This document shows positions 29,001-52,649 of a DNA stretch of 64,000 bases, piece after piece. The notes under the pieces were generated by a model, which was given only the letters and a program-made list of their open reading frames with translations, did no database searches and was not told the DNA's origin. This stretch comes from Yuukianura sp. NJ FZ-2021 (lineage: Eukaryota). Within the stretch, counting starts at the first letter, position 1. Each line of letters opens with the position of its first letter. The stretch lies in the NCBI GenBank assembly GCA_046563655.1, contig JAJCTO010000014.1:248001-312000 (forward strand), read 5' to 3'. A program made the translations under genes and the position numbers.

Positions 29001-29273
29001 AGCCGATGCAAACTTTTGAATCATTTAAAAAAAATTCCCTCCTCACGAACTGAGGGGTTTTAGCGTTCAAAAGTTTAAATTCTGAATGTGGAGAGAGGCG
29101 ACTCTGCCATCGCTGTACTATGAGTCCTTCCTAGACGTGATCAAATTTCCGACAATTCCAAAAACAACACAAGTGTTAGCGGTCAAAGTTTGAAGTTATG
29201 GCCTCATGCAAACCGGGTAGAAACTTCGTTCAAGGGGGGTTCTAAAAGCCGATGCAAACTTTTGAATCATTTA
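23100..29273 (+). repeat. ~245-bp satellite DNA array, block 2 (~25 monomers)
   Basis: Same monomer and orientation. Ends at GAATCATTTA, the TSD of Polinton-2. Confidence 0.99.
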
Positions 29274-29560
29274 AGTTAGTGTTAAATGATTACTAAAAGA
29301 ATGTAGGTCAAGCCCCCCTCCCCACAGCCCCATCCCCTGTTCGTTCACCCCGTTCCATTGTTGAAAAGTTTAGCCCTGAGGCAATGAGTGGTGGAATGAA
29401 ATTTAAATTTGCAAATTAAAAAAATATTAATAAACAATAATTTGTTTAATTAATTAGTTATTATTTGTATTTATAATTTTAAATTTAATTTAGTTTTAAA
29501 AGTGTTATACAAAAAAAATAAAAATAAAAATTTTTTTTCGAGATTCGAACTCGCGTCAAC
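29274..29560 (+). repeat. Left terminal inverted repeat of Polinton-2
   Basis: First ~140 bp are roughly 90% identical to the reverse complement of 52505-52649. A degenerate AT-rich match continues to the B box at 29541-29551. Confidence 0.9.
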
Positions 29561-29733: not shown

Positions 29734-29838
29734 TTCCTAGTTATTTTCGGTTCCAAATTCAATGTTATGCCTTATACTTTATTTGGCTAAGCTCTTCTTT
29801 TGAGCAACATTGAATTTGGAGCCGAAAGTAACTGGAAA
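29734..29838 (+). repeat. Stem-loop (~30-bp arms, ~39-nt loop)
   Basis: TAGTTATTTTCGGTTCCAAATTCAATGTT / AACATTGAATTTGGAGCCGAAAGTAACTG. The mismatches are G-U compatible on the + strand. Confidence 0.8.
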
Positions 29839-29864: not shown

Positions 29865-31332
29865 TCATTCCCATTTGCCATTAAACAGATGACGTTTCTT
29901 CAGCACTGGAAACTAATCCCGTAGGATTCAAGTCCAGTGCTGAATACTGCGGATTTGTAACCGCAAATGGGAACGAAACCATGTTCCCGCGAAGAAATGG
30001 ATTGGTGCTGGTGCTGGGTGCTTGGTACCTAGTACCGGTACCTGAAATAAAAACAAAATTTGATTAAAAAAAAAGTTGCAAAAATCTGCAATGCAGTTTT
30101 TTGCAAGCAAACAGAATGACAATGGAGAGAGATGCGGGATGCTTACTTCTACGTCCGCACTCTCCACTCTACTCTCCACTCTCATTCTGTTTACTTGCAA
30201 ATAAAATTGCATTGCAGATTCTGAATAAAGTAGCTTTCGCTACTTAATAAAAACAAAAACAAACCTTGCCTTGGCCGCGAATACTCCGGATGCTGCCGCT
30301 TGGCAGCCAGTCTTGCCGACTGCCGTAACGGCTCCAAGTGCTGCACCATCGTGGGGCTGGTCAGGTTGGGGTATTCACCCCACGGTGGTGGGGCCAAGCC
30401 AGTCGCTGCTACTGCAGGGGTTGTTGGAGCTGGACGGTGGGGCAGCTGGGGTGGGGCAGTGGTGGCACGTCGTGGGGCAGGAGGCGTAGCTGGATGTGGT
30501 GTTGGTGGGCGGGGCCTAAATCCCCGATGTTGGTGGGGCTCTCTCCACTCCCGAACCCACCCAATCAACCACCGAATCCCTGCACCCACGACACATGTTG
30601 TCACTACTGAAACAAAGACAAATCATGAATTAGTGATTTGTATGGAATGTGACAACGAAAAATGAATTTTCTTTAACATGTTGGGTACTACCTCGCTTAT
30701 TGACAAAAATGAAAAAAAAAACATCTTGTACCAATTTCGGTATAAAAAAAAATCGAATGTAAAATTAAAAAATTCAGCTGTATTGTTAAGACTACGATAT
30801 CATGAAATGAAAGAAACTCTTTCTTTTTGCAAAATCGAAAAAACATGAGGTATTACTCAACCTGTTAAAGAAAATCAAAGTCAATAAACCTTGCTAACTC
30901 TGAATCGTTCCAATTTTAGTAAAAAAAAAAGACTTACACGCCAACCATGCTGCCAAAATGATGGCAGCAGTCTCCCACTCTGTTGCAGGGACCCCCTCTC
31001 GTACTTGGTCAGGCTGGGGGCACTTGAGGGTGTCAGGGGGAGCCACGAGAAGATGCAGCGCCCATTGGGGGTATCCCCAATGGGGTGGCATACCCCCACC
31101 CCGTCTTCACGCCTCGACCAAGCGCATCGCTCCCCCAGACACTGAACACAGGGCCAGTTCAGGTCACACTTCGGTGGGTCCCCAAACCCCGTGGCTCCAA
31201 ACAATACCACGATTGCCAAATGGCCCAGCAACATTCGAAAATTTTCCTAAAAATAAATTTTAATTAATAATTTTTTAGTTTTTAGTTTATTTTAGTTTAA
31301 TTGGTTTAATTTTAATTATAAAAACTTACCAT
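29865..31332 (-). CDS. Putative type I membrane protein A: signal peptide, PSI-like Cys domain, TM, Pro-rich tail (multi-exon; one apparent frameshift; 3' exons uncertain)
   Basis: ATG|GTAAGT at 31332. Exon 31246-30938 MENFRMLLGHLAIVVLFGATGFG-DPPKCDLNWPCVQCLGERCAWS...C needs +1 nt in a C/G run near 31070 to continue LLVAPPDTLKCP...TAAIILAAWLA. Exon 30606-30265 LVTTCVVGAGIRWLIGWV...Pro-rich...YPNL. Confidence 0.6.
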
Positions 31333-31633
31333 TTTCTAGGAATCCTCTTCCAGCACAACAGCACAAAACAGAAGCACGAGGAAGTGGGAGTTTTTACAAC
31401 TTTCACTTTCACGTGCTTTTGTTTACAACCGGTTACACATGCATACATGCATTCACCTTTGTACCCACTCACCTGAGATGAGTACATATGGGCAAATTTT
31501 AACTTGAATTCAGTTTTTAAGTTAATTATGCTGTTTTATCTTTTCAACTGTATTAAAAATTTTCAAAAAATAAAAAATAATTTTTTTTAAAGAACGAATT
31601 GTTTCAACAATATGAAAACATAGTATTTGGAAT

Positions 31634-31714
31634 AAAAAAAAAGTTGAACCACTCGAGATTTGAACCCACGGCAACAAAAATTTTCAGAACACGCTCATAC
31701 CACTGAACCACTTG
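31634..31714 (-). promoter_or_regulatory. tRNA-like A box/B box element
   Basis: On the minus strand: TGGTTCAGTGG (31710-31700), then GGTTCAAATCT (31666-31656), then a T9 run. No proper cloverleaf, and an internal T5. Confidence 0.5.
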
Positions 31715-31814
31715 TACTTTGTTAAAAATTCTTGCAAACTGAATACAGTTGAATGGAAATCTATGAATACTTTTACTAGTAAAGCCAAAATTCACAATGC
31801 TACCATAAAACTAT

Positions 31815-33743
31815 TTATTTTAAATCTAAAATTAAATTGAAATTCGTGTTGGTGTTGGCCTCCATGGCTTCTAGGCGCTGTAATTCCTCCTGCCATTGCC
31901 GAATAGCTAGGCTCCTATGTCCCACGACCAGATTTGGACTGAATGGGTGCTGGAACATTAATCCGTCCAGAGTTGTGACACGACCTAAATTTTAAATTTC
32001 ATTATTAAGCTTGAAAAATATGAAAAAAAAATGCAAAAAATTGTTTCTTACTCATTGCTACATAAACCAACTGAGGCGCCTGACTAGTAAACATTGTTGA
32101 TGTGTCACCGGGTGCTGGATTCCCCACCACTACCCGTTTGCAAGTTTTGCCCTATAAAGAAAAAACAAATGATCAAATGTTTTTAGCATAGTCTTGAGGT
32201 AATTCACCTGTGCCTTGTGACATGTCATTCCCCAAGCCAGTTGCAATGGGAATAACTTTCTTTGGTAAGTTCTTCCTGCATACTTGTCATAGTATGGCAT
32301 CACAACCGGAACTATAGGAATGTCTCTCCTGAGTGGATAAGCAACGCCAAAATATGAATCAGGACGCACGAAAATAAAGTTTGGAACTCCATTTTCATCC
32401 ACATCAGTTGAGACTTGAGTCACGGTGACAAGAGCTCCGTTGTAAAGACCTTTTAGAAAAATTCAAAATTAGTCTTTTTAAAATTAGTATGGTTAGGACG
32501 GCATACCTGCAGCGACAAAAAGATTTTTTGTTAACATGCAGCGGGCTCCAACCGCCAGCTTCAATTTGTCGCCAGTCTTTGACTCATCTCGCAAGTCGAT
32601 GGCGTCCACCTCCGTAATGTCTACGCCCAGCTCCGAAATTCGTTTTCTAATTTTTTCACATTTTTAATAGTATGCATAAATTCAGTTTCTTACAAAGACT
32701 TACTCATTGTAACTATTCACGTTGTGATTTTCTGCAAAGAGAACAGGAGCCGAGAGGAAAAGTGAAAGCTCTTCAGCAGTCAGCAGTGAAGAAAGTTTTT
32801 CCAAAGACCTCAATTGCAGCGCTTCAATGTCTTCTTCTTCTAGTTGCCCGCATCTTACGCGCGACAGAATTTCTTTTAACTTGGCTTGAGATTCATCTTG
32901 TCGCATAATTTCTGTCAGTATGACGCATTTGTTAAAATGTGCATACGCCTTGATCCCGTCCAAGCACAAGCCTTCGGCGTGCATTGACTTGTAATATAAG
33001 GGTCTATCTGCCACTGGACTTAACCTTTAACATCAAACATCACTATTATACGGTTTATACATTTAAAAGTGTAACTTACTGTGCCAGATCACCCATGGCC
33101 AACACCGTAAGACCTCCAAACGGATCTTGTGTCCTGAAAATTGCGCGGAGTCTTCGCTCCATGTATCCTAGGAGACCAACCCCAAGCATAAAAACTTCGT
33201 CAATTATTAACAGCCGTACTCCTTTCAGTCTCTCCCGTGGAAAGTCCACGTATTTTTCCGGGTCGTGTTTTCGATGGCCTAAACTCAATGAGAGACCACT
33301 GTGAACAGTTATTCCTCCCGCGTTAAATGCTGCTGCGCCCGTAAATGCAAAAACACGGAAACGAATCTTTTTCTTTTCGAGATAGCCTCTTAAATAGTGT
33401 ATAATGAAGCTTTTTCCTGAAATTTTGAAAAAAAAAAAGTTAATTTCAAATGAAATTTCTAAAGAAATTTTGACTTGCCTGTCCCAGCAGCGCCGTGACA
33501 CAAAATGAATTCCTGGTTACGAGCTTCGAGTGCTTCTGTGACCAGTTTCGCTGTTTGACGCTGCTTGGAATTGAGCTGCTCGAGTACCACTTCCGGAAAT
33601 ACTCTGTTCACCGGCTGTGTTTTGCTGTACTCGATAAATGTCATTGGGTTGCTAGGTACCAACTTTGGAACAACTTTTCCTGTAGTTTCGTCTTTCTGCA
33701 ATTTTCTTTTGAGTGAACTTTTATCCATCCTTACTGTCTGCAA
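31815..33743 (-). CDS. PIF1-family SF1B DNA helicase, 7 exons
   Basis: Introns 33478-33417 (GC-AG), 33079-33025, 32703-32647, 32506-32450, 32207-32152 and 32051-31985 give one open frame with GAAGTGKS, FTGAAAFNAGGITVHS, LLIIDEVFM, FGGLTVLAMGDLAQLSPV, LTEIMRQ, LAVGARCMLTKNL..AGLYNGA, FPLQLAWGMTCHKAQGKT, YVAMSRVTTLDGL. Confidence 0.93.
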
Positions 33744-34135
33744 CGCTTGATTGATGATACCGGTAGACGTGAGGAGTAGAAAACGTTAAAGTTTTTCAAA
33801 ATTTCTTCTTGAGTGTGAGCAGCGTCTAATCCTGTGACTCTTCCAATTTTGAATCGGAACCCGCCAAATGTAAATGGTTCTTTGCTGGACCAGCGACGAA
33901 TGCTACAAAGAATCTCCACGATATCTAAAGGCTTTGAAGGCTTGGCCGAGGGGCAGACGTGCTGCGCAAATCCGTCCCATACAATGTCACAGTTTGTGCA
34001 CTGCGAGTAGTCTTCCCGAACAATTCTCTCAATATCTCGGCAGCGCGATTTAGTAAGCCTGTCTTTGAGTACCTTGATTCTGATTGGACTAAATATTTTT
34101 ACACATCTGCAGCAGTGATGTGTACTTGAATACAT
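33731..34135 (-). CDS. Hypothetical Cys/His-rich protein
   Basis: 134-aa ORF with HHCCRC and CTNC...HVC, overlapping the helicase start. No family recognised. Confidence 0.5.
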   Translation of the reverse strand: MYSSTHHCCRCVKIFSPIRIKVLKDRLTKSRCRDIERIVREDYSQCTNCDIVWDGFAQHVCPSAKPSKPLDIVEILCSIRRWSSKEPFTFGGFRFKIGRVTGLDAAHTQEEILKNFNVFYSSRLPVSSIKRCRQ

Positions 34136-34816
34136 ACTGACTGGTTTAAGAAATTTTTCAGACTTAAAAACGATTTTAAGGCGGGATTTTATACGGCTGT
34201 TTTGAAGCTAGAGTAGAGGTTGCCTTAGGTCATTGAACTGAGCTTAGAAGCCTAGAGGGTAGTAATCAGTCAAAGTTCTTCAACCCTATCGAGGACAATG
34301 CAAAATTCCAAAATTAGAAAGTCGTGCCGCTTTGCCGGCCGGGACATCATTGTTCTGCGTGATATTCATAATTGCATGAAGAGAACGACATGAATGCAAC
34401 TTGCAAGTTAGGAGAATCATTGTTGCAGCTAAGATTCTTAAACACAAAAGAGCACAAATTGCAAAAAAAAATCGTGACGGACAGACCGCCCGGGAGATAA
34501 TTTCTTTTGTGTGATATTCAAATTTGAACATAATTGAACAACTGAATTGCACTAAGATGGCAATGAACTTATCTTCGACGGAGTGCACTGACCCTTTCGC
34601 GACTGTCTGAAAAAGTCGCCGGTCGTCCGAGGTCAAAGAAATGGCCGAAACGGCGTCGGGGGAGGTAGGGGGAGACCAAGCATTGGATTGGATGTTTCAG
34701 GAACATCAGGGGTCACGCGGGACTGAAATTTTCGCTTAAAAAGGCCCGAATTCGAGATCCAGTCATCAGTACTTTCACAAATTCACAAAGGTCAGCCAAA
34801 GCAAAGCAGCTCGAAA

Positions 34817-35717
34817 ATGGGAAGCAATAGCGCTGGTGAGTATTTACTTATTGATACCAAAAGTTTCTTTTTGGATTTTATTCTTTTAAAATACTTTCAG
34901 AGGTTCCATCGCAAAAGGTAGGAGCGTTTCGGAGACGCTTGGATTTTGATGACGCAGATGAAGCTACACCGGCCGTCAGGAGTCGACGGGCCATTGACTT
35001 GTTGACCGGCGTCGCCAATCCAGGCCAGGACGTTGTGGAGGGAAGACCGCCGAACACTCCATTTATTTTCACTGAGGCATTCTCTGGGTTACCGATGAGT
35101 TATGTCAAAAAGGCAAAGCAACTGGAGCTTGGGCCAAAGAATGCGCAAGCGTTCTTTGGTGAATTGGGGCTCGTGGAAAAATTTGGGACTTCAACAACGT
35201 TTTACGCTCGGCTTGGATTTGACCCATTTTCTCAAAGTAAGAAAAAGAATGATTAGTTTCGGCTCATATTTTTAACTCTTCGTCTTTTCTTTTTCTTGCA
35301 GCGATGAAAATTTACATCCAAAAGCTAAACTCGAATGCGAGCCCAACGATCCTTGGAATTTTGTTTCGAGAAGTTGGTGTGATCCTGGATCAAATAAAAT
35401 CGACCTTGGCTGAGATTGACGAGTCTGTGAAGGCAGGAGCTCCCTTATTCAAGTACGAGCCGGGAACTCTGATTGAGCCCAAAGAGTTATCATTCTGGAC
35501 GCACGACGACGCTTGGTATAGCGAAACGATGAGATTTAGAATGCGCTTTGTCAACGTCCGGAGGGATAGATATTTTTTTTACCTCAATTCTCAAAGTGAT
35601 AACTCCAAATTTGACGGCTATTTTGGGCCAAAGTTAACGTTTTGTCGGGGAGACATTGATGGGTTTGTGAAGACAATGCAAAATATCATTGCTAAGGTTG
35701 ACCCTGAAGATTTGTAA
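34817..35717 (+). CDS. Hypothetical protein, 3 exons (34817-34835, 34901-35236, 35302-35717); possibly tandem PC4/PUR-like ssDNA-binding repeats
   Basis: GTGAGT..TTTCAG and GTAAGA..TTGCAG introns join two listed ORFs in frame. AATAAA follows the stop. Fold guess rests only on a repeated strands-then-helix pattern. Confidence 0.65.
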
Positions 35718-35879
35718 AGAAAGAAAAGTTTTCAATAAATGTATGGCTATCAGCCACTTTTTTCGTCTTCAAGGTTTAAGATGCATTTTTTTTTTGCCTC
35801 GTCGTCTACAGTATTTAAAGTCTGTAGTTTCCGAAGTTTTGCATTAGATCATTTTTCACTTCCAAAGAAAAAAATAGAA

Positions 35880-36185
35880 ATGGGATCCACGTTATCCAGA
35901 CCCTGCGAGCACGAGGATTGGGACACTTGTTTCTGTCCTCAGGAGGAAATATTCAACGACCAACGGACGGGAGGAGACTGGAGGCGACGATTGACACTGG
36001 AGGCCTTCTTCGTTTACGACCGCCTCAAGGCTACTTGGACTAATTTTTGGACGCGGCGTCGTAACCGCCCAATATACTGGAAGCCAGAAGAACCTGATGT
36101 AATGTCCCAATTTCTACACTACCGAAGCATGCACCGTCATGCCCAAATGCGGCTGCTCGAATTGAGTAAGGTTTTCCAAGCCTAA
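35880..36185 (+). CDS. Small hypothetical protein with N-myristoylation-like start (MGSTLS)
   Basis: ATG at 35880 in AAAATGG context. MGxxxS motif, CEHEDWDTCFC, Arg-rich. Confidence 0.45.
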   Translation: MGSTLSRPCEHEDWDTCFCPQEEIFNDQRTGGDWRRRLTLEAFFVYDRLKATWTNFWTRRRNRPIYWKPEEPDVMSQFLHYRSMHRHAQMRLLELSKVFQA

Positions 36186-36217
36186 TATGAGCCCATATAG
36201 CCAATTATATTGTCTTA

Positions 36218-36985
36218 CCGTATTTATTCTAATGTAAGCGCGCGCTTATAAGAATTTTTCCGAATTTGAGACGCGCTTCTATTAGAGTGCAAATTTAATA
36301 CCGGATTAATGTATTAATAACAGAGGTTGAATTTCGGTTTATGGATTGTCGTCTTCGCTCACGTCGCTTCCTCGCTTCCGGACTCTTTGGAGCTTATTGG
36401 CTTAAATTGAGCAATTCAACGATTTTCGACGGCGCATGTCTATCCCTCTTTCATACACGTTATTTTTTCATCTTCGCTTCCATTCGTTCGTAAATTGATA
36501 CCGCAGACTTGAAACGATTTTTTGAACTGCTCATTTAAAATTCCGTTGAACGCGCTAATTATCTATGAAATCTTAACATCTTTTAAAGGGGCCTTCAGAT
36601 TTCCGCGTTTTGTGTAGAATTTGTCCTCAGACTCCAATTATTCTTCGTAATATTCATACAATTTGTCTCTGAAGGGCTTGTTCCAGCAAACATCAGGCGC
36701 TTGAATATACTTTGTACAGCTCTAGGAATTATAGTGGTCAGAGTATTGAAGTCGTTCAAGTATTCTTTCGTCGTAGCACTAATATGGCCCTTATATGAGT
36801 CCCAAATCAACACTCGCGTGTTGATTTGGGAAAGTTAGGACTACCTAGCCATAGGTAGTCCTAACTTTCGGTTTAAACTGGACCTAATATACCGCGCTTA
36901 TGTCTCATTTTCACTTTTCGGAACCGCGCTTGCATTAGAGTGTGCGCTTCTATTAGAATGCGCGCTTACATTAGAATAAATACGG
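36218..36985 (-). mobile_element. Nested Tc1/mariner-superfamily (pogo-type) deletion derivative
   Basis: 26-bp perfect TIR CCGTATTTATTCTAATGTAAGCGCGC, TA TSD on both sides. Decayed transposase C-terminus LIWDSYKGH...IIP/CTKYIQAPDVCWNKPF...KSFQVCGI...NGSEDEKI. Confidence 0.92.
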
Positions 36986-37242
36986 TATTTTCAGTTGATT
37001 TTTTTTTACTTTCAGTTCTCTTTAATGCGGCCGACGAAGATCTCCAGCCATACCGTTATAATTATTGACCCTAGGACTATGCCAAATTTCATAATTTTGA
37101 GATTTGAAATAAACAAAAATGAAAGTATGGATTTCTTGTTTAAGCCTTCCTTCAATCCTTGGAAAAATCAATGTTTTTTTTGCAGCGAGTCAAAAAAAAA
37201 ATTAAATTGAAGAAAAGGAGAACATGGATAGTTTATTATTCA

Positions 37243-37907
37243 TCAAATTTCAGACATATCTGCTCCCAATTTCTTTTCTTCGTTCATTTCATACGTCTCA
37301 TACACAGTATGTGGTCCACAATATCCTCCAGGGAAGCGGAAAATTTCGGTTAGAGCTAGGACTTCAGTGTGGGGTCCATCTTCTCCTTCAACTGGCCACT
37401 TTGTATAATCCATTGAGTGCTTGTCTCGAATCACGAGGCATGTCGTACCTTTGTCATGATAAAGTTTGATTTTTGGCAGGTCGCTGACCCCCCCATCCCC
37501 CTGAAGAAAGAGTTGATACAGCTTCCCAATAAGTCTGGGAACCATTTCAAAATCCACCATGGCTGCCGTACCGTGTTGTTCGATCCGGAGTACTGGTGGA
37601 GTTGGACGATACGTTATTAGAGAGCAATCCAAAGTTTCCGGATGATTGATACACACTTTTGTCACTACTTTGTATTCCCCGCTCGCCTCATCAGGACAAG
37701 AGACGGATCTATACCAAGTAGATATCTTTGAGCTTCCCTCCATTGTTTTCCTAAGACTTTTAACTCTGACTTGAGTTGTGGGTGAGTAAAGTGAGACTGA
37801 GCGCCAGAGAACACAGTCAATTTATACCCCTTTCTCTCGGTGTAAACGACTCGTGTGAACGGAGAGATGGTATGGAGCATTGAGCTCCCCATGCCGTAGG
37901 AAGTCAT
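37243..37907 (-). CDS. Hypothetical protein(s): two overlapping ORFs (37907-37665, 37743-37243), possibly one frameshifted gene
   Basis: Protein-like composition in successive frames, divergent from the TATA at ~37957. No family recognised. Confidence 0.45.
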
Positions 37908-38018
37908 TGACCTTTCCGCATTTTCTCAAAAACGTTTGTGCTCGTTTTGGTTGGGTATATAAAGCGGTATAGACTTGGAAATGTGATCATTCCTTTTTTT
38001 AGGCTCAGCGATTTCAAA

Positions 38019-38482
38019 ATGCCGACGAAAAACTGTGCACCTCTGGCGGGTAGAATTTTAGAAATTGTAAGTTTTGAACTCTGACCTTAAAATTCTCTTT
38101 GTTCGTAGATTGTCCAAACAGACAGGAAAAGCCATTGGCTGAACTTTTGGACGAACTTGCCGAAGTGGATCCTGTCGTACGTCAGTTTGGCAGTGCCGTG
38201 CTGAAGCACCGCTGCTGGAACCGTAAGGGTCACCGTGACTGTTACGTCTACGATGCAGAACTTAACAAGGACAAGACAATGAATGAACTGGCAGCGGACC
38301 ATTCGGCCTATGTCCGGGAAGGGGATTTGGAAGAGTTCATGAAGGACATGAAGGCTCACTTGGTTCTTTCTGAACCTTGTATCTTGGGCTGTGGACGAAC
38401 CGGATCACAGTGTTTTGAAAATCCGTGCTTCTTGGTAAAGTCAATGGACTGGAACGACGAAGACGCTATGGATACCAACTGA
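38019..38482 (+). CDS. Hypothetical Cys/His-rich protein, 2 exons (38019-38049, 38109-38482)
   Basis: TATATAAA at ~37957. AAAATG start. 59-bp GTAGAA...CGTAG intron in frame with the listed ORF. Confidence 0.55.
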
Positions 38483-38614
38483 CCCCTGAGTCTTAGGCTT
38501 AAATAATTCTCGAAAATTCGGTCGTTTTTTAAATAAATTTGGTAAAAAGTCATACTCAGCCGGCAGTCGCCGTCATACACTGTCTTGTGTAATTTCTTTT
38601 GTAGGTTTTTTAGC

Positions 38615-39769
38615 ATGTCTGAAAGACAAATAAAGTCAGCCTATTTGAATAAAAAAGCAGTTGGAAGCTTTTCAGGTTTTCCGTCATTCTTAAAGTCGTC
38701 AGGTTTTTTAGACAAAGAGAAGGTCAAGCAAGCTTTGTCCGGAGTACCTGCATATTCTCTGCACAGGCCGCAAAGAAAGCCAAGGACCAGGCCAGTATTA
38801 ACGTTTTTTCCTATATGACGTTCGGAGTGGATCTTTTACAGTTGGATAAAAAGTCTGCCAAAAAAGAAAAGATTGGCTTCATTCTCATCTGCATGGACTT
38901 GTTTAGCCGCTTTGTGTGGACAGAGTTCTGTGTCAACAAGACAGCACGGGTCGTTCTAGAAGCCATAAAGAAAGTTTTCAAAAAAGCTGGGGTAAATGTC
39001 TTCTTTTCTCTCTCAAGTCCATTTAAAGTTTATCATTTTTTTTTTCTCAGCATCTGCCGCATTTCTTGGCTTCTGATTTTGGAAAAGAATTCAAGAATAA
39101 AAGCCTTTTGAAATATTTGGAAGCCAATGACATTCACAGTTATTCGCCGAGAACTGCGAGAAAAGTTTCACAAGTAGAACGTGTAATTCAAACGTTAAGA
39201 AGAAACTTGACCCGGGCTCAATTTGCCAATCCAAAGTCTTCTATGAAAACTCTATGGCCGGACATTGTTTCAAATTACAATAAAACGGTGCATTCAACCC
39301 TGAAAATGACCCCCACGGAGGCTATTGACCCCAAAAACAAAACTACAGTTTTTATAAACGTCTACGACAAACTAATTAATTCCAAACCCGAGAAGCCAAA
39401 ATTCAAGGTAACAGTTAAACATTCCCTTTGTCCTATAAAAACATGTCTCTTCTTTCCAGGTGAATCAGCTCGTGAGGGTCGCAAAAAAACGTCTAACTTT
39501 TGAAAAAGCTTCAACGTCACAATCGTACTCTACGGACATCTTTCGGTAAAAAACGAATTTGCCCAATTTTGGGATGTCAACAAAGTGTCCTTTTTTATAG
39601 GATTCGAAAGGCAATCAGCGCAGTGCCTCCATTCTACTACCTTGAGACGCTGAAAAAGGAGGAAATTAAAGGTAATCATTTTAGACGGATTTTGGAAGTT
39701 GACAACGATACATCTAATTCTTTTTTAGGAAGTTTCTTGAACGAAGATTTGACCCCAGTGACTGCATAA
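38615..39769 (+). CDS. DDE integrase (Polinton-2), 5 exons, one apparent 1-nt frameshift near 38805-38815
   Basis: Introns 38992-39050, 39408-39459, 39546-39600 and 39672-39728 restore FGVDLL...CMDLFSRF...LASDFGKEF...VERVIQTL...YNKTVHSTLKMTP...KFK/VNQLVRVAKKRLTFEK...IF/RI...IK/GSFLNEDL. Confidence 0.9.
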
Positions 39770-39771
39770 AA

Positions 39772-40881
39772 ATGTACCCGTTTTCACGCTTCGTGACCCT
39801 AGGTTCCACTTCATTTCCCTCGTTCTTCCCTTCAAACAATACAAGTTCTTTTCGAAATAGGCTTTTGGACAGTATTACTTTGCAAAAGAATCTCCCGCTT
39901 GAAGTTGCAGTGTGTAATTTGTGGTACCCCGCAACGCCAGACACTGGAAAATATACGATTTTTGGCCATGAATCCGACGACAATGTCGTTTCCGTGGTTC
40001 AACGCTTTGAATCGAGCATGGAAGTGTTTCGAGCCGAAAGTGAAAGTTATATTGAAACAATGAACAAATGCAATACGAATTTTGCAATATTCAACAACAA
40101 GCTGACATTCCTGTTGGAAGTACAAGATGGAAGGGACTTTTTAATATTTCGCAACAATGACACTGGCTACGACGTGAAAATTCCAGAAGTCTATGCGTAT
40201 GCTCTCGGATTTACAAAAAATGTGTTTGGCCAAGGTGAAACCGATGCCCCATTGTCTCCAAACCAAACTGCTTTGGACGCCATCGACATTTCAGAGCCGC
40301 TCAAGTTCACTGTTTTTCGTGAAGTCAGTTCTACCGTAAAGGTCAATGAACCCAATGTCAAGACTGTCGAAGGCCTAGTCAGTGAAATCAATGCGGCTTT
40401 GAAACAGTTGGAAATTTCATTTTCCTACGACGGAAGCAAACTCAGCGTCAACGGCGTCTCCGGAAGAGGCTATAGTGTTCGTCTCTCGGAATTTCTTGAA
40501 AAAACGTTTGGCCTCAAAACTCCATGTTGGTTTAGCTTCAACAACACTTCATCCCCGACAATCGCCAACATTGACCTGGATATACATCACAACAATGTGA
40601 TTGTGCTCTGCGATGCTGTTAAACCGCAGGAATTCAAATCCAAGGCAGTCCGGCACATGAGCATTTTGCCAAGGCGAGATTTGAAAAAAGAGGAAGGAGT
40701 TAGAATTGTACACGAAACCCCACGGCCACTGCTATACTTTCCTGTTGACATGGACCGGAAGGAAATTAATGAAATTGGAATCGATCTCGTTTTTGAAAAT
40801 TTGGAACCAATCCCTCCAGCTAACGATTTATATTCCGCGGTGTACTTCACTTTCAAAATAAAACTTTATAAATATAAATAA
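39772..40881 (+). CDS. Minor capsid/penton-like protein (PZ), divergent, intronless
   Basis: FVTLGSTSFPSFFPSNNTSSFRNRL...LEVAVCNLWYP and IVLCDAVKPQ...PLLYFPV...INEIGIDL align by eye to Polinton-1 PZ. Follows the integrase as in element 1. Confidence 0.85.
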   Translation: MYPFSRFVTLGSTSFPSFFPSNNTSSFRNRLLDSITLQKNLPLEVAVCNLWYPATPDTGKYTIFGHESDDNVVSVVQRFESSMEVFRAESESYIETMNKCNTNFAIFNNKLTFLLEVQDGRDFLIFRNNDTGYDVKIPEVYAYALGFTKNVFGQGETDAPLSPNQTALDAIDISEPLKFTVFREVSSTVKVNEPNVKTVEGLVSEINAALKQLEISFSYDGSKLSVNGVSGRGYSVRLSEFLEKTFGLKTPCWFSFNNTSSPTIANIDLDIHHNNVIVLCDAVKPQEFKSKAVRHMSILPRRDLKKEEGVRIVHETPRPLLYFPVDMDRKEINEIGIDLVFENLEPIPPANDLYSAVYFTFKIKLYKYK

Positions 40882-40932
40882 TCTGCTGCATTAGTTAGTC
40901 GTCATTTGACTTTCGTTGGAGCCAGAGGCCAC

Positions 40933-41289
40933 ATGCTTGAAGTTGTGTGTGAAGGTGAAGGTTGTAAGCTTTTGAAAAGAATGGACGGAGAAAAGACTCG
41001 CCAGGTTGGGTACGGGGCGTTGACCCCTGTAGTTTTACCAAATTCAATTCCATTCCAGAGTGTGAAAAAGGCTAAAAAGGGTAAAAAGAACGGTGCTTCA
41101 GAAATGACAGGAGAAGGACGAAAAAAATCCAAAGGCCGTAAAAAGACTGGAGCTGCTAAAAGAAAAGGAAAAGCACCCCAAAAGAAAGTGTCCGCGGTGG
41201 AAACTTCTGCTTCTAAAAAGAAAACTCCTCAAAAGAAAAAGATCGGCTGTGGACCAACGAAACAAGCCAAGCCAAAATCGTTTAAATAG
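40933..41289 (+). CDS. Lys-rich basic core-like protein
   Basis: QVGYG, MTGEG and IGCG motifs, very Lys-rich. Lies immediately upstream of the MCP like PX in element 1. Confidence 0.65.
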   Translation: MLEVVCEGEGCKLLKRMDGEKTRQVGYGALTPVVLPNSIPFQSVKKAKKGKKNGASEMTGEGRKKSKGRKKTGAAKRKGKAPQKKVSAVETSASKKKTPQKKKIGCGPTKQAKPKSFK

Positions 41290-41352
41290 AAGAACCATTT
41301 ACAACATTCCTCAGTCTTGTGTCCAGCGTTAGTCGGTAGAGTCAGTCTCAAA

Positions 41353-42653
41353 ATGGCTTCAGTAAACACGCTTCCGGGTACAAAGCCCAACTACGTTTCC
41401 CAACTCGATCTATTTTCAGTTCCCCCGACTGACATTAGTGTGCAACAAACAGAGTTCATCAAGATTATTCCAGTGAATACTGTAAAAGAAAATCCTCAAA
41501 TCACGTTCAACATTGGGCAGTTTCAATTCCCGCCCAACGTTTACTTGGATTTCTCATCATCATACCTCTACCTTAAATGTAAAGTGCTCACTGCAAGTGG
41601 AGAAACGCTTCCGGACAATGCCGACGTTGCTATTAGCAACATGATGTTCTACACAATCTTTGACTCTTGCATTGTCACCGTCGGCGGCGTTCAAATGAGT
41701 GAGTACCCACAGAGTTACAGTTACAGAGGAATTCTGTCGCATCTCCTGGGCTACAGTCAAGAGCTCAAAACGAGCCTCCTGTCATCAATTGCCTACTACC
41801 CAGATTCCAAACAGGATGTCTTTGACGCAACAAACACTGGATATACGAAAAGAAAAGCCATTTGTGCCGGGTCAAAGACCTTTGATTTATTTGGAAAAAT
41901 CTCATGTTCATTGTGTGAACTCCAACGATGGATTCCTTCGGGACTAAAAATTGAACTTACGCTGACTAAAAGCTCAGCCCTCTTCTGCTTGGACACGCCC
42001 ACCGACACAAAGTATACGTATTCCATTGAAGATGCCGTCTTTCATCTCAAGGCACATACAATTAGCCCTCGAATCTACTCTAATCATCAGCAGCTATTCA
42101 ACCATGGAAAAAAAGCAATCTACAGTTACCGAGAAATTGAAATTGAAAGAAACACAATCGCTTCCGGAACTGTCAGCTTCACCTCGGACCGGCTTTTTCT
42201 TCGGAGGATGCCTACGATTGTTGCAATTGCGTTTGTGAAATAAAATCGTTTCGGGGAAGCTACAAGAATAGTGCCCAGAATTTTGCCGACTTTGGCGTAA
42301 CGTCAGTCAGCGTCAGAACAGAAGAATTTGTTCCATTTTACAGAGAACTCGTCTGTAATTACGCTGCAAACCTGTACATGGAACCATTCGTGGCTCTTTT
42401 TGATACACTCGGTTCTTTTGGAAACGGAATTTCCCGCGAGAATTTCAAACTTGGCAACGCCGTCTACCTTTTCCAACTTTCTGAAGCTGCAGTCTCGAAC
42501 AATGACCTCCTTCCTGCGCGTGAAGGGCCCGTCCGTGTAACAGCAGTCTTTGCTGAAGCCCTGAACGAGCCAGTCGAGTTGATTGTGCTGGGAACTTTTC
42601 AAAACGTTTTAACAATTGACAAAAACAGAAACGCCCAAGTTCTTAAAACTTGA
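41353..42653 (+). CDS. Major capsid protein (PY), one 1-nt frameshift at ~42240
   Basis: SQLDLFSVPPT...YLDFSSSYL...YSYRG...MPTIVAIAFVK, then in the next frame SFRGSYKNSAQNF...LTIDKNR. Adding one base gives 433 aa, the same length as the element-1 MCP. Confidence 0.9.
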
Positions 42654-42655
42654 GG

Positions 42656-43242
42656 ATGAACGGGACGGAACTGGAGGAAGCAATGGCGTGTATAAAAGAG
42701 TGCTCTGACTCAAAAATTCGAACTTTTGTTACTTCTAATGATGGAATTAGTCTTCTAAACCCACGCCCCCCATTCTGCTGTATACAAAATACCGGATTAA
42801 CTTCTTCTCCAGGTAAATACTCTAGGTAAAAAAAATATGTAAACGCAAGAGATTTATTTTTTGTTTTAATTTAGGAATTCATTGGGTTCTCTGGGCGCAC
42901 TTGGAGCAAGGCCAGTTGGTTTTTTTTGACAGTTTTGGGAAATTGCCTAGCGATTACAACCTATCTCTTCCTTACGGCCCGTGCACTATAATTTCAGAAT
43001 GGAACACTAAAAAACTACAAAGGGATGACAGTGCAACGTGCGGCATGTTCTGCTTAAAAGTCTTTCAAGAGTTGAGCAGCGGAAAGGATTTGTGTACCTC
43101 CTTAAGTATATTTAGTCCTAAAAACTTAAACAAAAACGAAAAAATTGTATCCGATTTTTATAGCAGTTTAAGAATCTGTACGAACAGGGGTCAATCAGGG
43201 TCATCCCAGACATGCTATTCTTATTGCGATTGGCTAAAATAA
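42656..43242 (+). CDS. Adenain-like cysteine protease, 2 exons (42656-42812, 42875-43242)
   Basis: MNGTELEEAM...IQNTGLTSSP/GIHWV...FFDSFG...LQRDDSATCGMFC. 62-bp GTAAAT...TTTAG intron. Confidence 0.9.
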
Positions 43243-43334
43243 CTTTTTACTGTGAATAAAATATAAATATCCTACAATTTCTTGACGATTGTTTCAGTAT
43301 TCATTTCACTCATTTTGAGTCAACAAGTAGTGTA

Positions 43335-44001
43335 ATGGCTCTCTGCAGTTTCCTCTTGTTGTGTTTACTAATCTCAGCGTCATCAGGCAAGTAACCAATT
43401 TCCTTCTCCATGGTCATTTTTTTGTGATTCTTTTCTTTTTGGAAGCAGGAGAGCAAAAAACTCTCCAAGAGCGCTGTAGGAACTGCATCTCAGGCGGTCA
43501 TGTATTTATCAAAGGATGGCATTTCAATTCGATTCAAAACTTTTTTTGCACAAATGACTTGACCCGGAACCTCCCGGGAACACTCATTATGGGCGCAACT
43601 AACGTCACAGCCAATTGCGATTCCCACCAACAAGATACGGATGGAACCGTTTATGGAACGTTGTTTGCTGATAATTTCAGCAATGGGACGGCGCTAAAAG
43701 ACATTTCGAATTTATTGAGAGCGATGACCGGCTGCAAGAGGCAACAAAAGTATGAACCCGCCTCCCAACTTCCAGTATTACAAGCTATTCTGGGTATGCT
43801 ACACCTTATAGTCTGGTCGCCTATATGCATTAATTGTTTTATTTATCCACAGCCTTGTCCTGCGTGACTTTTGCCGCCGCCGTCGCAAACGTCTTGGGGT
43901 GGAGTTTGGGAGGTCAGTGCCATGGTAGCCAATCCCGCGGGACATTCGGCAGTGTATTTAACGTCGCTCTCCGTCGATCCCCCCGTCAGTCCGAAGTCTG
44001 A
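43335..44001 (+). CDS. Putative type I membrane glycoprotein B, 3 exons (43335-43386, 43449-43793, 43853-44001)
   Basis: Signal peptide MALCSFLLLCLLISASS, GC-AG intron (GCAAGT), ectodomain CRNC...C...C with NVT/NFS/NGT sequons, TM LPVLQAILALSCVTFAAAVANVLGW, tail ending SEV. Confidence 0.65.
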
Positions 44002-44058
44002 GCCTGGGAATAGCTTTAGAAAATTTTTTCAGTTTCGTTTTTTTTAAGTTTGAATAAA

Positions 44059-47000
44059 ATGGGTTTTCTGAATAAACGGGCAGCAGAGGTAAAAAAAATT
44101 CTAAGCCGTCTTATTATTGTTGTTTCACAAAAATTTTTATTTATAGTTTAGTTGCGGTTATCAAAGTGCTACGTTGCACTGCCCTTTCAAGTGCTCGACC
44201 TACAAGGCCATGGCCATCCATGTGGAAACTGTAAGACATTACTTTTAGTATGCGGAAAGATGTGAAACTTTCACTTTTGATGCAGGTACATAGCTGTAAT
44301 TCTTGTGGAGGGTACTTTGATGAGGCTAGTCTTCACCGTCCAATCTGCCCTCAGAGAGGCATGGGCCGTACAGCGAACAATGACCTCGCTACGGTGGACA
44401 TCCGCCCTTTCAAAGAAATCCGCCATGCTCTCAAGGGGACTTTGAAGTTGTTTTCTGCACCCGTTGAGCCACCCACCGAATGTCAAGTACTCTCCGTTTT
44501 TGAAAACCTCGACTTTCCTATTAGAAAGTTACTGAAATCCGTGATTGGGCAGTACAGCGGAGTCAAAGTCAACTTTACTTTAATTGCTGACATGATTGAG
44601 GTCACACACAATGTCATTCACCTCGGAGACGCCATCGGAGCTCCTTTCATGCCTCTTTCTCATCCCGATTTCATTTCAAGGGTGGTTACAAACTCTTGCG
44701 TATACATCATTAACGCCCTCAACTTATACCTAGAAAACGGAAGCAATTGGCAAATTCTACGGCTACGTTCTCTCAACATTGGTATTGGTCAGTGGAGTCC
44801 AATTGTTCGAGGGCGGGGCTACATTCCGATTCCAAAGGAATTGGCTCGGAGGCGCGGACTGCTGTCGATAAATACCAATTCCAACTGTTTTCAATTGAGC
44901 GTACTATGTGCACTATACGAAGATGAAATTTTGGAGTTGGGAAGAATGAAGCGGCACTGTCTTGGGCTCAAGGATCACCAAAATTCAAAAGTTGAGAGAG
45001 CAATTTTAGAAAAAACAGCAAGTTATGAAGCCTTTTTAGAGAGATTGGATCTGAGCTTTCTCCCTCGCTCTGACGTTTCTCTTTTGGACATTGACTTGGT
45101 CGAAGAGAAATTCCCAGAACTTAGCATCACCGTATACGGAAACCAGGGATCGGACATTGTTCTGTGGCGTGCACCACAAACTGAGAGAGCGAATCACGTC
45201 AATCTCCTACTAATCAAGCACCCAGAACGAGAAGAACATCACTTTGTTTGCATTCGGGACATTTCGGCACTTCTCGGAAAAATGGGTAATTACAGACACC
45301 AATTTTGTCCTGTCTGTCAAAAACGTTTTGACTCTAGGACTTGGTCTTCCGTAAACCATACATGTGGTGAAAACTCTGTAAAAGTAAAAGTACCTACGAA
45401 TGATATTGTCAAATTTCGCAAGTTTGATGCCCTCCTAAAAGCTCCTTACATTTTTTTCTACAAATTCTTCTACATCTCTGTCCAAACTCCGATGACCATT
45501 GGACAAGAATGTATCAGTGTTACTGAAAAAGCTCCAATTGCGTTCAGTCTAGTGAGTATATGTGAAACAGGACACGTAGACCGCCACTCTTACATCGGAA
45601 AAGACTGTGTGGACGTTTTCTTTAAAACTGCAATGGAAATGGCGAAGATGAAGCTGGACGAAATTAAATTTACAAACAAGATGCTTCAGATGACAGAAGA
45701 ACAGGAAAGGCTTTTTCTGCAAGCGACACATTGCGAAATTTGTGGAAAACAATTCAACGACGTTTCTGTGCTTAAGGCTTACCACCATAACCATTTCACA
45801 GGAGAGAAGATGCAGACATGTTGCACAAACTGCAACTTGGAAATCAAACCAAAGAACCGTATTACAGCGATTGCATTTTGTGAAAAAAATGAGTTTAATT
45901 TTTTGCTAAAATGCGTGAAAGATGAGCACGGAATTGCCACGCCAATTCGTAGAAAGGAAGGCAATACAATAGGCATGGACTTGAGAAAAACCATTTGTAA
46001 ACAAAAGTATGACCTTTACTTTGGGGTCAAATTTGTGGATTTTCAAAATTTTCGTCCAGACTCTCCTCTCTCAGATCTTGTACAGGAGCTGAAGATGTCA
46101 GGCATTGGATTTCCAATCTTTCAAAAAATTTTTGGCCAACAACTTTCTCCCGACGCTACACTAACTGCCGCAGACGACATTCTCCCCGAATTTTCATCGG
46201 TTGATAATTTTTTCGAAAACCAATCCGTGCCGTTCGTGAGTCTAGAAGGTTCGAGTAAATTCCAACTTCCTGACTCTTGGAAACAACTCTCCTTGGAAGC
46301 CATAGTTCGGCATAAACTTAACAGTGTCGCTGCTCTAACGGCAGACGTTTTCCAAGCGATTCGAAACGAATATTGGAAAGAGTTTCATTTGGATCTGGCT
46401 TCCTTTTGGAGCATTTCTTCATTTTCAAGAGAAGCCGCATTCCTAATGGAAAAGTGTGTAATTCAAGCCGTCACGGACGAAGAAATTTCAAAACTAATTA
46501 CACGAGGAATTATTGGCCCTGTGATTCAAGTTACAAAGTTGAAGTCTATTGCCAACAATGAAGAGCTCTCCAACTATGACCATACCCTTCCACAAAAAAT
46601 AATTTTTTATGCTGACATTAACTCCTGTTACAGCAAGTGCTTCTTGGGTAATTTACCGTGCGGAGACTACAAAAAATTGAGAGCAGAGGAGATCATGAAG
46701 TTTGATTTCAACAAACCAGATTTTGACGAAGGCTGGGGTTACCTCTTTGAAGTCGACCTTGAATATCAAAGTGAAGCAGTGAAAGAGTTCCTTTCAGACT
46801 TTCCCTTCCCGCAACAGAGACTCAAGGTTTCTGCTCAAGAGCTTTCTGCATTCCAGCAGGAGAGTTTGGGAGAAAAAACAAACATTGAACAAGAGCGAGT
46901 GCTTCTGACCCTCTACAAAAAAATACGACAAGTCTACTACGGAAAGTACCTCAAGTTCATGATTGACCATGGCGCAAAAGCAACAAAGTACTATTCAGTA

Positions 47001-47909
47001 GTTCGATTTCGGGAGTCTCCGATTTTTGCAAATTTTGCAGCTAGCAATGTTATAGCTAGAAACCAAGCAAAGTATCCCCTTCAAAAACAACTTCGGAAGC
47101 TTTTAAACAACTCGCTGTATGGACAGATGCTGAAAAACAATGCAGATTACATACGTTCAAAGACCATCAGATCTTCGGTGGAAGCGAAAGCAGAACTTGC
47201 GAAAGCAACTTTCAAGTCGTTTGAGATTTTGGACGAAGACACTGCGCTTTTTGACTTTTCAAAAGGAGAAATCACCGATTACAATCTACGCATGATTGGA
47301 CTTGCAATACTTTCAAATGCAAAAATTATGCTCTACTCACACTACTATGACGGACTAAAACGTGAGTTTGGGGACAGGTGCCATCATGTGATGACTCATA
47401 CTGACAGCATAGTTGCTGAAATCCACTGTAGCAGAGCCGAATGCGTAGCTGGTCTGAAACGACTTTCAAATCGCTTCGACTTTTCTAATCTACTGCCGGC
47501 ATCCGAACTCTATGATGCATCTCGGGCAGGAATACCTGGACTCTTGAAGATTCAAGCTGAAGGAATCAAAGAATTTTACTCTACTTCCTGTTCCCAATAT
47601 TCCATGGAAATTGATTCAGCACATGGACAATCCAACATTCTGAAAGCGGGCGGAATTCCGAAAACAGAGGCCAAGGATCTGAGGCACGCTGATTTTAAGC
47701 GCGTAGTTGAGCATGGAGAGGCTTTGAAGAAAGTAAAAATTTCTACGGTGAAAATTTTACATGACCAAATGTTAGTTGTCACAAGTAACCGCTCATCCCT
47801 CACCTCCAGCATCAACGCATCAAGATTTTTTGTGTCAAACACAATTTCCCTTCCCTTTGGAGACAAGCGTATTGACACCATAGTTGATTATGATTTGAAA
47901 AATAATTAG
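44059..47909 (+). CDS. Protein-primed family B DNA polymerase, 3 exons (44059-44088, 44147-44230, 44286-47909)
   Basis: Spliced N-terminal C2H2 finger (CGYQSATLHC...HVETVH). ENGSNW...GRGYIPIP; NCF...HFVCIRDIS; EndoVII/HNH-like CEIC...HHNHFTG...CN; YADINSCY; FEVDLEY; KLLNNSLYG; HTDS; C-terminal SLPFG. Confidence 0.93.
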
Positions 47910-48140
47910 ACTTTTAGAATTGGGAGCTACAAATAAACTCATCTTTAAAGAATGTCTAGACGCTCATGATTTTATGTCTTTGTAATTCGAGTGTCTTAAA
48001 AGTTCCAAAAGATCAATTGCGAAATCATCAATAGCTTTCAAAAGTTTAGCTCTACTGAACTTCTCACAAACAGATCTCTGCACACATTGTCAGTTTAGCT
48101 TCCAGTCTCCAAAAGCGCTCAACAAAAGAATCAAACAATC

Positions 48141-48762
48141 ATGCGTAAGTTTTGAGAAAAACTTTTTAACCTTTAGTCAATTTGTATTTAAATCTTGATT
48201 TCTATTTTTTTTCTCAGCCGCTTGTCATGCATTATGGAGGTGCGTCAAATGTGTCATGATGGGATGTGCGTTCTTCGAATTTAATCGGACTGGACAGGAG
48301 AGGACATTTTGTGGATTGGAAGGAACTGCAAGGGGATACACCTTTAATGTAAACCCTCCCAACTGGGAAGCTTGTCGGAATATCCCGACGACGACGACCA
48401 CTGAGCCACCAACGACGGAACCACCAACCACGGAACCACCAACCACGGAGCCACCAATGACGGACCCACCGGCCACGCTGACCCCGGATGTCCCTGAACC
48501 TTCAATTGAAGCTGCAACGGAATTGAATATTGTCTTGGTCATCATTACTGGTAAGCTATAACTCGTAAATTATGAATATTGCATCAGAATTCTAATTTAA
48601 TAAATCTGTTATTAAGTGGGCTTGCTCCTGGCCATTGCAGTCTATATGGTCACTCGCAACGTGAGGCGCCGTCGACGACCGAGGCCCCTTAGTGACCAAC
48701 TCCAGCGGGGAGAAGCTGCTCTTCAGTTGGAAGCCGTCACCGCCCGTGAAAGCTCCCTTTAG
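48141..48762 (+). CDS. Putative single-pass membrane protein C: PSI-like Cys domain, TEPPT mucin stalk, TM, polybasic tail; 3 exons (48141-48144, 48218-48550, 48617-48762)
   Basis: ACHALWRCVKCVMMGCAFF...FC...AC, (TTEPP)n repeats, IVLVIIT/VGLLLAIAVYMV TM, RRRRRPR, ends ESSL. Canonical GTAAG donors. No signal peptide found. Confidence 0.7.
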
Positions 48763-48785: not shown

Positions 48786-48910
48786 TCCTCCCATTAGCTT
48801 CTGTGAGGTGCAACTTGCACCTCACACAAAAACCAAATTGATGTAGTCTCTAGTAGTATTCAAAATTCTCCCATAAGCTCCTGTGAGGTGCAACTTGCAC
48901 CTCACACAAC
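48786..48910. repeat. Two direct copies (80-bp spacing) of a 25-bp palindrome
   Basis: TGTGAGGTGCAA-C-TTGCACCTCACA at 48802-48826 and 48882-48906 within ~43-bp direct repeats. Confidence 0.92.
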
Positions 48911-49804: not shown

Positions 49805-50185
49805 TTAGTAAAGTGTAATGTGGCACTGAACCCCCAAAACTATTTTGCATCTTCTGACATGACGAAGATAGTTGTCATTCCGGTCAGTTTGGTACTCGCG
49901 GCAGCGACACTGAAACTTGTATTCTTTGGAGGGATTGGACCGCCTGGGGTGTATGTTTTCACAATGTCGCTTGAAAGTAAATTTCCGCTTAAACGACATC
50001 CGACATCCCTCACAGTACAGAGATGAGTAGTCGATGGGTGGTAGTTGAAAACCCATTACGTCTTCCGTTTGAATGGCTACACTTTGCTTCGTTCGATTTC
50101 CAAAACAACGATGCGATTGGTATAAGTCCACAGTTGCAAAGCAGCAGCGACAAGAGAAGCAAACGTATCTGTCGCTGAATTGAGG
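49805..50185 (-). CDS. Zinc-finger protein (last exon; C2HC/C2H2 fingers)
   Basis: After a TTTTAG acceptor: YVCFSCRCCFATVDLYQSHRC, LYCEGCRMSFKRKFTFKRHCENIH, FQCRCREYQTDRNDNYLRHVRRC. Confidence 0.75.
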   Translation of the reverse strand, partial: PQFSDRYVCFSCRCCFATVDLYQSHRCFGNRTKQSVAIQTEDVMGFQLPPIDYSSLYCEGCRMSFKRKFTFKRHCENIHPRRSNPSKEYKFQCRCREYQTDRNDNYLRHVRRCKIVLGVQCHITLY

Positions 50186-52354: not shown

Positions 52355-52649
52355 GACGCCAGTTCGAAACCAGATTTTATTTTTTTTTTTATTTGTTTTT
52401 TCATTTTTTTTTTAAAATTAAACTTGGATAATTTAAAAATAATAAATACAAATTAATAATTAATCAATTAACTAAATTTTGTTTATAAAAATTTATAAAA
52501 TTAAACTTGTAAATTTAAATTTCATTCCACCACTCATTGCCTCAGGGCTAAAAAATTCTCAACAATAGACCGGGGTGAATGGACAGGGGATGGGGCTGTG
52601 GGGAGGGGGGCTTGACCTACATTCTTCTAGTAATCATTTAACACTAACT
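52355..52649 (-). repeat. Right terminal inverted repeat of Polinton-2
   Basis: Reverse complement of 29274-29560. Ends ACACTAACT. Confidence 0.9.

Follow-up and report, generated by a model that had tools for sequence, protein, structure and literature searches.

A 64,000-bp stretch of contig JAJCTO010000014.1 from Yuukianura sp. NJ FZ-2021 (GenBank assembly GCA_046563655.1, positions 248,001–312,000, forward strand) contains three predicted intron-bearing genes, designated A, B, and C, within a 23,376-bp element that we take to be an integrated Polinton/Maverick. The three genes may encode orphan accessory (cargo) proteins of the membrane or secretory type that engage host trafficking and PDZ scaffolds, a reading that we prefer tentatively and at slightly less than even confidence. 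As an orphan gene set in one Polinton copy they are moderately interesting; no relatives were found, and the models are predictions from sequence. The whole stretch is called the window below, and coordinates are counted from its first letter.

Gene models

The models, with their splicing, topology, and glycosylation, are predictions from sequence features. They comprise the exons and signals listed here, in which TM stands for transmembrane segment.

31234–29881, minus strand: gene A model, 266 aa (predicted splicing)
30940–31234, minus strand: gene A main 5′ coding exon, with an 18-aa signal peptide and the six-cysteine module (open reading frame [ORF] and splice signals, GC 0.61)
31055–31168, minus strand: gene A cysteine module, Cys23–Cys60 of the model (pattern, alignment, and model)
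30265–30606, minus strand: gene A exon 2, phase 1-1 (spliced model, GC 0.64)
29881–30041, minus strand: gene A exon 3, with NPF, NPQYSAL, terminal SSV (29884–29892), and stop codon (spliced model)
43262–43298, plus strand: gene B promoter-like signals, TATAAAT at 43262 and TCAGT at 43294 (sequence scan)
43335–44002, plus strand: gene B model, 182 aa (predicted splicing)
43335–43386, plus strand: gene B exon 1, with signal peptide and the phase-1 GC donor CAG/GCAAGT, the slash marking the exon end (spliced model)
43446–43793, plus strand: gene B exon 2, phase 1-1, with the ectodomain and the first third of the TM (from 43769) (spliced model)
43853–44002, plus strand: gene B exon 3, with the TM remainder (to 43908), 30-aa tail, and stop codon (spliced model)
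48141–48762, plus strand: gene C model, 160 aa (predicted splicing)
48141–48144, plus strand: gene C exon 1, the ATG plus one base, followed by GTAAGT (spliced model)
48218–48550, plus strand: gene C exon 2, phase 1-1, with the cysteine module, an NRT sequon, repeats, and the TM start (from 48523) (pattern and model)
48617–48762, plus strand: gene C exon 3, with the TM remainder (to 48651), basic stretch, tail, and stop codon (spliced model)

The predicted exons stand out as steps in GC content, at 0.44–0.64 vs 0.22–0.36 in introns and flanks, and the edges of the steps fall at splice signals. All six coding introns across the three genes have phase 1, the middle exon in every gene is symmetric and 333–348 nt long, and the TM helices of B and C are both split 8–9 residues in by a phase-1 intron. 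Phase-1 introns and symmetric middle exons are the typical layout of metazoan secretory-pathway genes. N-glycosylation sequons in B and C are confined to the ectodomain side. The GC steps, the uniform phase-1 introns, and the promoter and polyadenylation signals predicted for B favor real genes.

Gene B is predicted to be a classic type I membrane protein. In its model a hydrophobic signal peptide is followed by a 105-aa ectodomain, which contains ERCRNC, five cysteines, and three N-glycosylation sequons, and then by a strong TM (Kyte-Doolittle 19-residue peak 2.11); the tail ends in SEV (43991–43999). A first-pass annotation of this DNA had reported CRNC and further cysteines in B, and the model indeed carries three more ectodomain cysteines beside ERCRNC. 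TCAGT lies 32 nt after TATAAAT and 37 nt ahead of the ATG; the two would be an initiator and a TATA box. Polyadenylation signals (AATAAA) are found at 44053 and 44071, 51 and 69 nt past the stop codon. Scored by the codon usage of the element, the proposed frame of exon 2 ranks best of six (0.109).

Gene C encodes a six-cysteine module (48223–48375), a Thr/Pro-rich stalk of TTEPP repeats, and a strong TM (peak 3.02). The repeats have a weak Pfam match to Extensin_1 (E = 0.012; 15.9 bits vs a cutoff of 105). RNVRRRRRPRP directly follows the TM, the tail ends in SSL (48751–48759), and the proposed frame of exon 2 again ranks best of six by element codon usage (0.186). A signal-peptide exon upstream of 48141 was considered and rejected, since none is present between the polymerase gene and exon 2. 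With no such exon in the model, C would be held in the membrane by a signal anchor, N-terminus outside and C-terminus inside. Because all introns are phase 1, a splice from B exon 1 to C exon 2 would stay in frame, and it is a speculative possibility that the signal-peptide exon of B is joined to the ectodomain exon of C in this way.

Two copies of a 42-nt unit (48788–48829 and 48868–48909) lie just past the gene C stop codon. Each contains a perfect palindrome with 12-bp arms (TGTGAGGTGCAA / TTGCACCTCACA). The window has no other palindromes with 12-bp arms, and none arose in 100 shuffles. The pair is possibly a terminator or a protein-binding site.

In gene A, a weak hydrophobic segment is coded at 30554–30606 and followed by a Pro-rich tail with YPNL. 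AATAAA is located at 29783, and a possible upstream mini-exon consists of an ATG at 31330–31332 followed by GTAAGT. Only a non-consensus phase-1 donor, GGC/GTGTAA, at exon end 30940 keeps the TM and tail in frame. The product is predicted to be of type I with weak anchoring or else, in this copy, to be secreted. Exon 1 has a GC content of 0.61 vs 0.25–0.28 in flank and intron, that of exon 2 is 0.64, and third-position GC (GC3) in exon 1 is 0.69, compared with 0.44 in element core genes; the host satellite has a GC content of 0.43. The high GC of these two exons hints at recent capture from another source.

On these models, B and C would make convincing single-pass membrane proteins. One TM had earlier been assigned to all three products; the hydrophobicity peaks support it for B and C and leave it doubtful for A, where the peak is 1.47 and an arginine lies inside the segment.

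Cysteine module

The pattern C.{3,7}C..C.{3,7}C.[WFY] was searched in six frames over the whole window. Only two matches were found, both within the element.

31118–31168, minus strand: CDLNWPCVQCLGERCAW, gene A four-cysteine motif, 17 residues
48223–48273, plus strand: CHALWRCVKCVMMGCAF, gene C four-cysteine motif, 17 residues

These peptides had been quoted in the first-pass annotation as sharing cysteine spacing, and the comparison bears this out. They are identical at 7 of 17 positions (BLASTP, E = 0.010). A and C each have six alignable cysteines; the fifth cysteine and a Pro-Asn dipeptide also line up, and the sixth cysteine was aligned by eye. A Smith-Waterman score of 44 was reached in 27 of 5,000 composition-preserving shuffles, real but modest evidence for kinship. 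A and C are probably old paralogues that share a six-cysteine N-terminal module.

Gene B was rejected as a sequence relative of A and C on the basis of shuffle tests and alignments. Its similarity is not significant to C (score reached in 765 of 5,000 shuffles) or to A (2,946 of 5,000), and a three-way alignment retains CxxC alone. As modeled, B shares with A and C only its gene architecture. The idea of one family of three thus contracts to A and C, as a plausible small paralogous family, and leaves B outside.

Relatives were sought in several sequence collections. An exhaustive phmmer search of the gene A exon against 1.84 billion representatives gave two matches at E ≤ 0.001, one of 2,903 aa with 34 matching stretches and one of 1,531 aa with 5, and both were judged spurious and repeat-driven. 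Word-based searches returned no homologue for the C module and none for the B exon at E ≤ 1, and gene C had no usable match in the ESM Atlas. The back-translated A/C motif was present in 0 stretches of viral contigs. It was matched at 57 metagenome loci and 34 prokaryote-genome loci, all of which were translated and rejected by eye as TG-type low complexity, stop-containing motifs, or off-frame GC-rich bacterial DNA; none had downstream cysteines, a stalk, or a TM.

The first-pass annotation assigned the genes to a PSI-like family of the PTTG1IP/CD164 type, acting at the surface or in endosomes. Under this explanation A and C, and B with them, would be host-captured PSI-domain proteins. The spacing in A and C, C-x5-C-x2-C-x4-C-x-[W/F], is similar to that in the N-terminal half of the PSI pattern, and a PSI domain short of one disulfide would have six cysteines. 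The gene A model is also like PTTG1IP in having a signal peptide, a cysteine module, YPNL, and YSAL, and the phase 1-1 exons and the GC3 of 0.69 in A exon 1 fit capture of a metazoan gene. However, the PSI domain has an eight-cysteine pattern that includes C-x-W-C, and A and C have six cysteines, with Ser (A) or Phe (C) as the residue after W/F. PF01437 (PSI) and PF05283 (CD164_MGC24) matched none of the ectodomains at E ≤ 0.1, nor in a Pfam scan up to E = 10, where few matches weaker than about 0.1 pass the HMMER filters. No PSI-bearing PDB chain (plexins, semaphorins, integrin beta, MET) was found at E ≤ 10 with the A+C profile or single sequences; the profile and C alone matched 0 chains, and A alone matched only dihydroorotate dehydrogenase (E = 0.87). 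B has no significant similarity to the other two. Structure prediction was uninformative: the C module modeled by AlphaFold2 with A as second row had a mean predicted local distance difference test (pLDDT) score of 51.7, too poor to count either way, and the B ectodomain folded alone reached 39.7. A Foldseek search of the low-confidence C model against the PDB had no match at E ≤ 0.001, and the 47 rows listed include no PSI domain. PSI kinship is unsupported, with the spacing of the first four cysteines and the aromatic residue as a lead, and host capture of PSI-domain proteins is quite an unlikely origin.

Tail motifs

The spliced models contain every tail motif reported earlier: YPNL in A, RRRRRPRP in C, and terminal SEV and SSL in B and C, respectively. 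A further feature, new here and beyond the SEV and SSL already noted, is that all three models end in a predicted class I PDZ-binding motif, SSV in A, SEV in B, and SSL in C. The class I consensus is S/T-X-hydrophobic-COOH (PMC4810129). Such a motif ends 7 of 206 six-frame element ORFs of at least 50 aa, so its presence in three of three models is unlikely to be due to chance, although this is a post hoc count in which A relies on its exon 3 model.

If the preferred reading of A, B, and C as accessory proteins is right, their products would enter the endoplasmic reticulum/Golgi/plasma-membrane system in cells with an active element, as small secretory-pathway proteins that are probably glycosylated. 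Short motifs in the cytoplasmic tails would then plug into host sorting and polarity machinery. The motifs used would be the class I PDZ end in all three, YxxL/NPxY/NPF-type and Pro-rich motifs in A, and the basic-proline cluster in C. Their role may be to modulate the host cell surface or trafficking, as a counterpart to adenovirus E3-type membrane proteins, with gene C a candidate for a release function like that of the adenovirus death protein (ADP). An E3-like effector role is a reasonable analogy.

Host element

The features that define the element are as follows.

29274–52649, no strand: Polinton/Maverick element, 23,376 bp (inverted repeats, terminus alignment, polymerase, integrase, PIF1 helicase)
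29274–29420, plus strand: left terminal inverted repeat (inverted-repeat search, end-to-end terminus alignment)
52501–52649, minus strand: right terminal inverted repeat (inverted-repeat search, end-to-end terminus alignment)
32130–34207, minus strand: PIF1-like helicase, split over several ORFs (profile match, E = 1.3e-12)
44235–47909, plus strand: protein-primed family B DNA polymerase, 1,224-aa uninterrupted ORF (family-B motifs, domains of relatives)

The first-pass annotation had placed the genes in a virus-like element, and the region does lie in one of Polinton type. Inverted-repeat arms at 29257–29420 and 52501–52666 are 87–94% complementary, and end-to-end alignment of both ends set the termini at 29274 and 52649. 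CATTTA flanks both ends (29268–29273 and 52650–52655). Since this 6-bp sequence is also present once per unbroken unit of the surrounding satellite, it is a target-site duplication. Terminal inverted repeats and a 6-bp target duplication are hallmarks of Polintons/Mavericks. The satellite has a 245–247-bp unit and occupies both flanks (8077–29274 and 52657–64000), with about 86 copies in the left block and about 46 in the right at 93–96% matches. The insertion site is inside one satellite unit.

The polymerase ORF sits between genes B and C. Only three database relatives were found, at 25–26% identity, and all three carry PF03175 and/or PF02945, the latter being present in two. At about aa 485–536, in its N-terminal half, the polymerase weakly matches Endonuclease_7 (Endonuclease VII)/C2H2 zinc-finger profiles in Pfam. 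This recalls the HNH-bearing pPolB2 class, reported from nematodes, oomycetes, and molluscs (10.1101/2023.08.22.554363).

Other core genes are less distinct. A DDE integrase is split and matches rve (E = 0.057) and IS481-type profiles (E = 3e-06 and 1.5e-04), all below curated cutoffs, and an Ulp1/adenain-type protease is represented by a weak Peptidase_C48 match only (E = 0.0099). The splitting of the helicase is presumably due to short introns. Putative capsid ORFs at 39718–40881 and 41290–42653 matched nothing in Pfam, NCBIfam, or PDB, and no packaging ATPase was recognized. No relative of the polymerase or the putative capsid ORF was found in the viral contig collection. Apart from the polymerase, the element has no long ORF of fusogen size.

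Three further features were observed. Close to the right end of the element, tandem repeats of 14 bp (ATTTCCCGAGATTC and its complement) form two blocks in opposite orientation (51173–51438 and 51834–52134), which together make up an inverted repeat of 220 nt with 93% complementarity. Between gene C and this end, a 126-aa ORF (49805–50185, minus strand) has C2H2-type zinc-finger spacing and a weak zf-met match (E = 0.034). An ORF at 35739–36185 (plus strand) has an internal start, MGSTLS..., that would fit an N-myristoylation signal, and may encode a membrane-associated element protein.

Support for functional genes

Several points weigh against A, B, and C as functional accessory genes. No homologue of any of them was found in the sequence collections searched, so there is no conservation evidence. 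The hydrophobic segment of gene A is weak, with an internal arginine, and a consensus donor, CGT/GTAAGT, lies two bases downstream of the one used (exon end 30938) and is out of phase; it leads to a stop directly after the splice and hence to a 99-aa secreted product. The codon usage of the element does not single out the frame of A, and the strand opposite its GC-rich exon 2 is also open. Gene B requires a GC-AG first intron, with a donor that is otherwise consensus, and gene C encodes no signal peptide. In tails as long as these, chance alone should yield short linear motifs such as YxxL.

Several of these points also suit decayed or never-functional ORFs, cargo fragments or chance frames left in an old insertion that now do nothing for the element. 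The lack of relatives (for A in 1.84 billion representatives, for B and C by word-based search), the truncating consensus donor and two-way open exon 2 of A, and the missing signal peptide of C all fit this explanation, as do terminal inverted repeats that are merely 87–94% alike. It is countered by a secretory architecture that recurs three times with sharp exon/intron GC edges at canonical splice signals, and by gene B, which by sequence is a complete transcription unit. The intact 1,224-aa polymerase ORF indicates that this copy is not heavily decayed, and PDZ motifs end three of three tails vs 7 of 206 background ORFs. Decay is an unlikely explanation on balance.

What the genes mean for the element turns on expression. 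If expressed, A, B, and C would be a Polinton counterpart of the adenovirus E3 region, and the PDZ motifs, the basic-proline cluster, and the cysteine module would be experimental handles. If not, they are just decaying cargo of one insertion.

Comparison with known systems

The route by which Polintons/Mavericks pass from cell to cell and host to host is not settled. In the available text of the literature found, only one membrane protein is linked to them, a glycoprotein B (gB)-like fusogen from nematode Mavericks, and one report asks whether envelopment or wider membrane involvement exists in other Polintons (10.1101/2023.08.22.554363). An adintovirus survey describes membrane-active virion proteins that are PLA2-, gasdermin-, and cupiennin-like, and the available part of its text notes no small type I glycoproteins (PMC8502044). 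A set of membrane proteins with a cysteine module and PDZ tails was not found described for Polintons in the literature searched, supplements aside.

The products could instead serve spread of particles, in entry, cell-to-cell spread, or release, whether as a FAST-type fusogen, an envelope or attachment component, or an ADP-like lysis factor, with C the foremost candidate. FAST proteins of reovirus and rotavirus are small, single-pass proteins of non-enveloped viruses with N-out topology, no signal peptide, and a myristoylation site. Gene C is like them in its predicted N-out/C-in signal-anchor topology and its membrane-proximal polybasic cluster, and the YPNL of gene A fits the YPxL late-domain pattern. 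A membrane-proximal tribasic/polybasic motif is a Golgi-export signal of the reovirus p14 FAST protein (PMC3952855, PMC3979892). In contrast to FAST proteins, C has a Cys-rich ectodomain that is far larger, about 100 aa with a cysteine knot and a mucin-like stalk, and a Met-Pro start that precludes N-myristoylation. Nematode Mavericks provide a precedent for an acquired membrane fusogen: MFUS-1, with 866 aa, a signal peptide, and one TM, is like herpesvirus gB (10.1101/2022.07.12.499685). A, B, and C resemble MFUS-1 as extra membrane-protein genes carried by a Maverick/Polinton and differ from it in their size of 160–266 aa and in having no such fold signal; none of the three resembles a known fusogen. 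A direct role in particle spread is highly unlikely.

The adenovirus comparison belongs both to that explanation and to the preferred one of accessory proteins acting on host trafficking. ADP (E3-11.6K) helps virions leave the cell; its luminal N-terminus is N-/O-glycosylated, it crosses the membrane once, and its cytoplasmic side has a basic proline-rich region (PMC8657697). The gene C model agrees with this layout point by point, with an NRT sequon, a Thr/Pro stalk, a TM, RRRRRPRP, and no cleaved signal, a likeness of architecture only. It differs in its folded-looking six-cysteine module, its PDZ end, and the lack of a palmitoylatable cysteine pair after the TM. More widely, the predicted set recalls E3, whose products are small membrane glycoproteins with accessory roles in a capsid-forming DNA virus of the adenovirus-Polinton lineage; A, B, and C matched no adenovirus family, ADP and E3 included, in Pfam.

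PTTG1IP (PBF), 180 aa long, has type I topology: a signal peptide and a glycosylated PSI domain precede its TM, and its tail holds two YXXL endocytosis signals (PMC11655445). The gene A model shares its small size, Cys-rich ectodomain, single predicted TM, and YXXL-type tail signals. Differences are that A and C have six cysteines instead of eight, with no cysteine after the Trp position and no PSI match in Pfam or PDB, that C lacks a signal peptide, and that the TM of A is weak.

For the PDZ ends, parallels are found among viral proteins. HTLV-1 Env (SSL), rabies G, and SARS-CoV E carry class I PDZ motifs (PMC4810129). The S/T-X-V/L ends of A, B, and C are like these and like HTLV-1 Tax (TEV) and adenovirus E4-ORF1 (TLV), and the SSL of HTLV-1 Env is identical to the ending of gene C. 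Hosts and proteins are unrelated, and PDZ binding by A, B, and C is a prediction. A bolder and very unlikely proposal is that the three PDZ-ended proteins of this animal Polinton hijack polarity and junction scaffolds and steer element proteins to cell contacts, with C as a death-protein- or FAST-like factor for exit or spread, for example towards the germline, and with the B leader exon spliced to C as an E3-like unit spanning the polymerase gene. The hijacking of polarity and junction scaffolds that this would involve is known from tumour viruses and some enveloped viruses.

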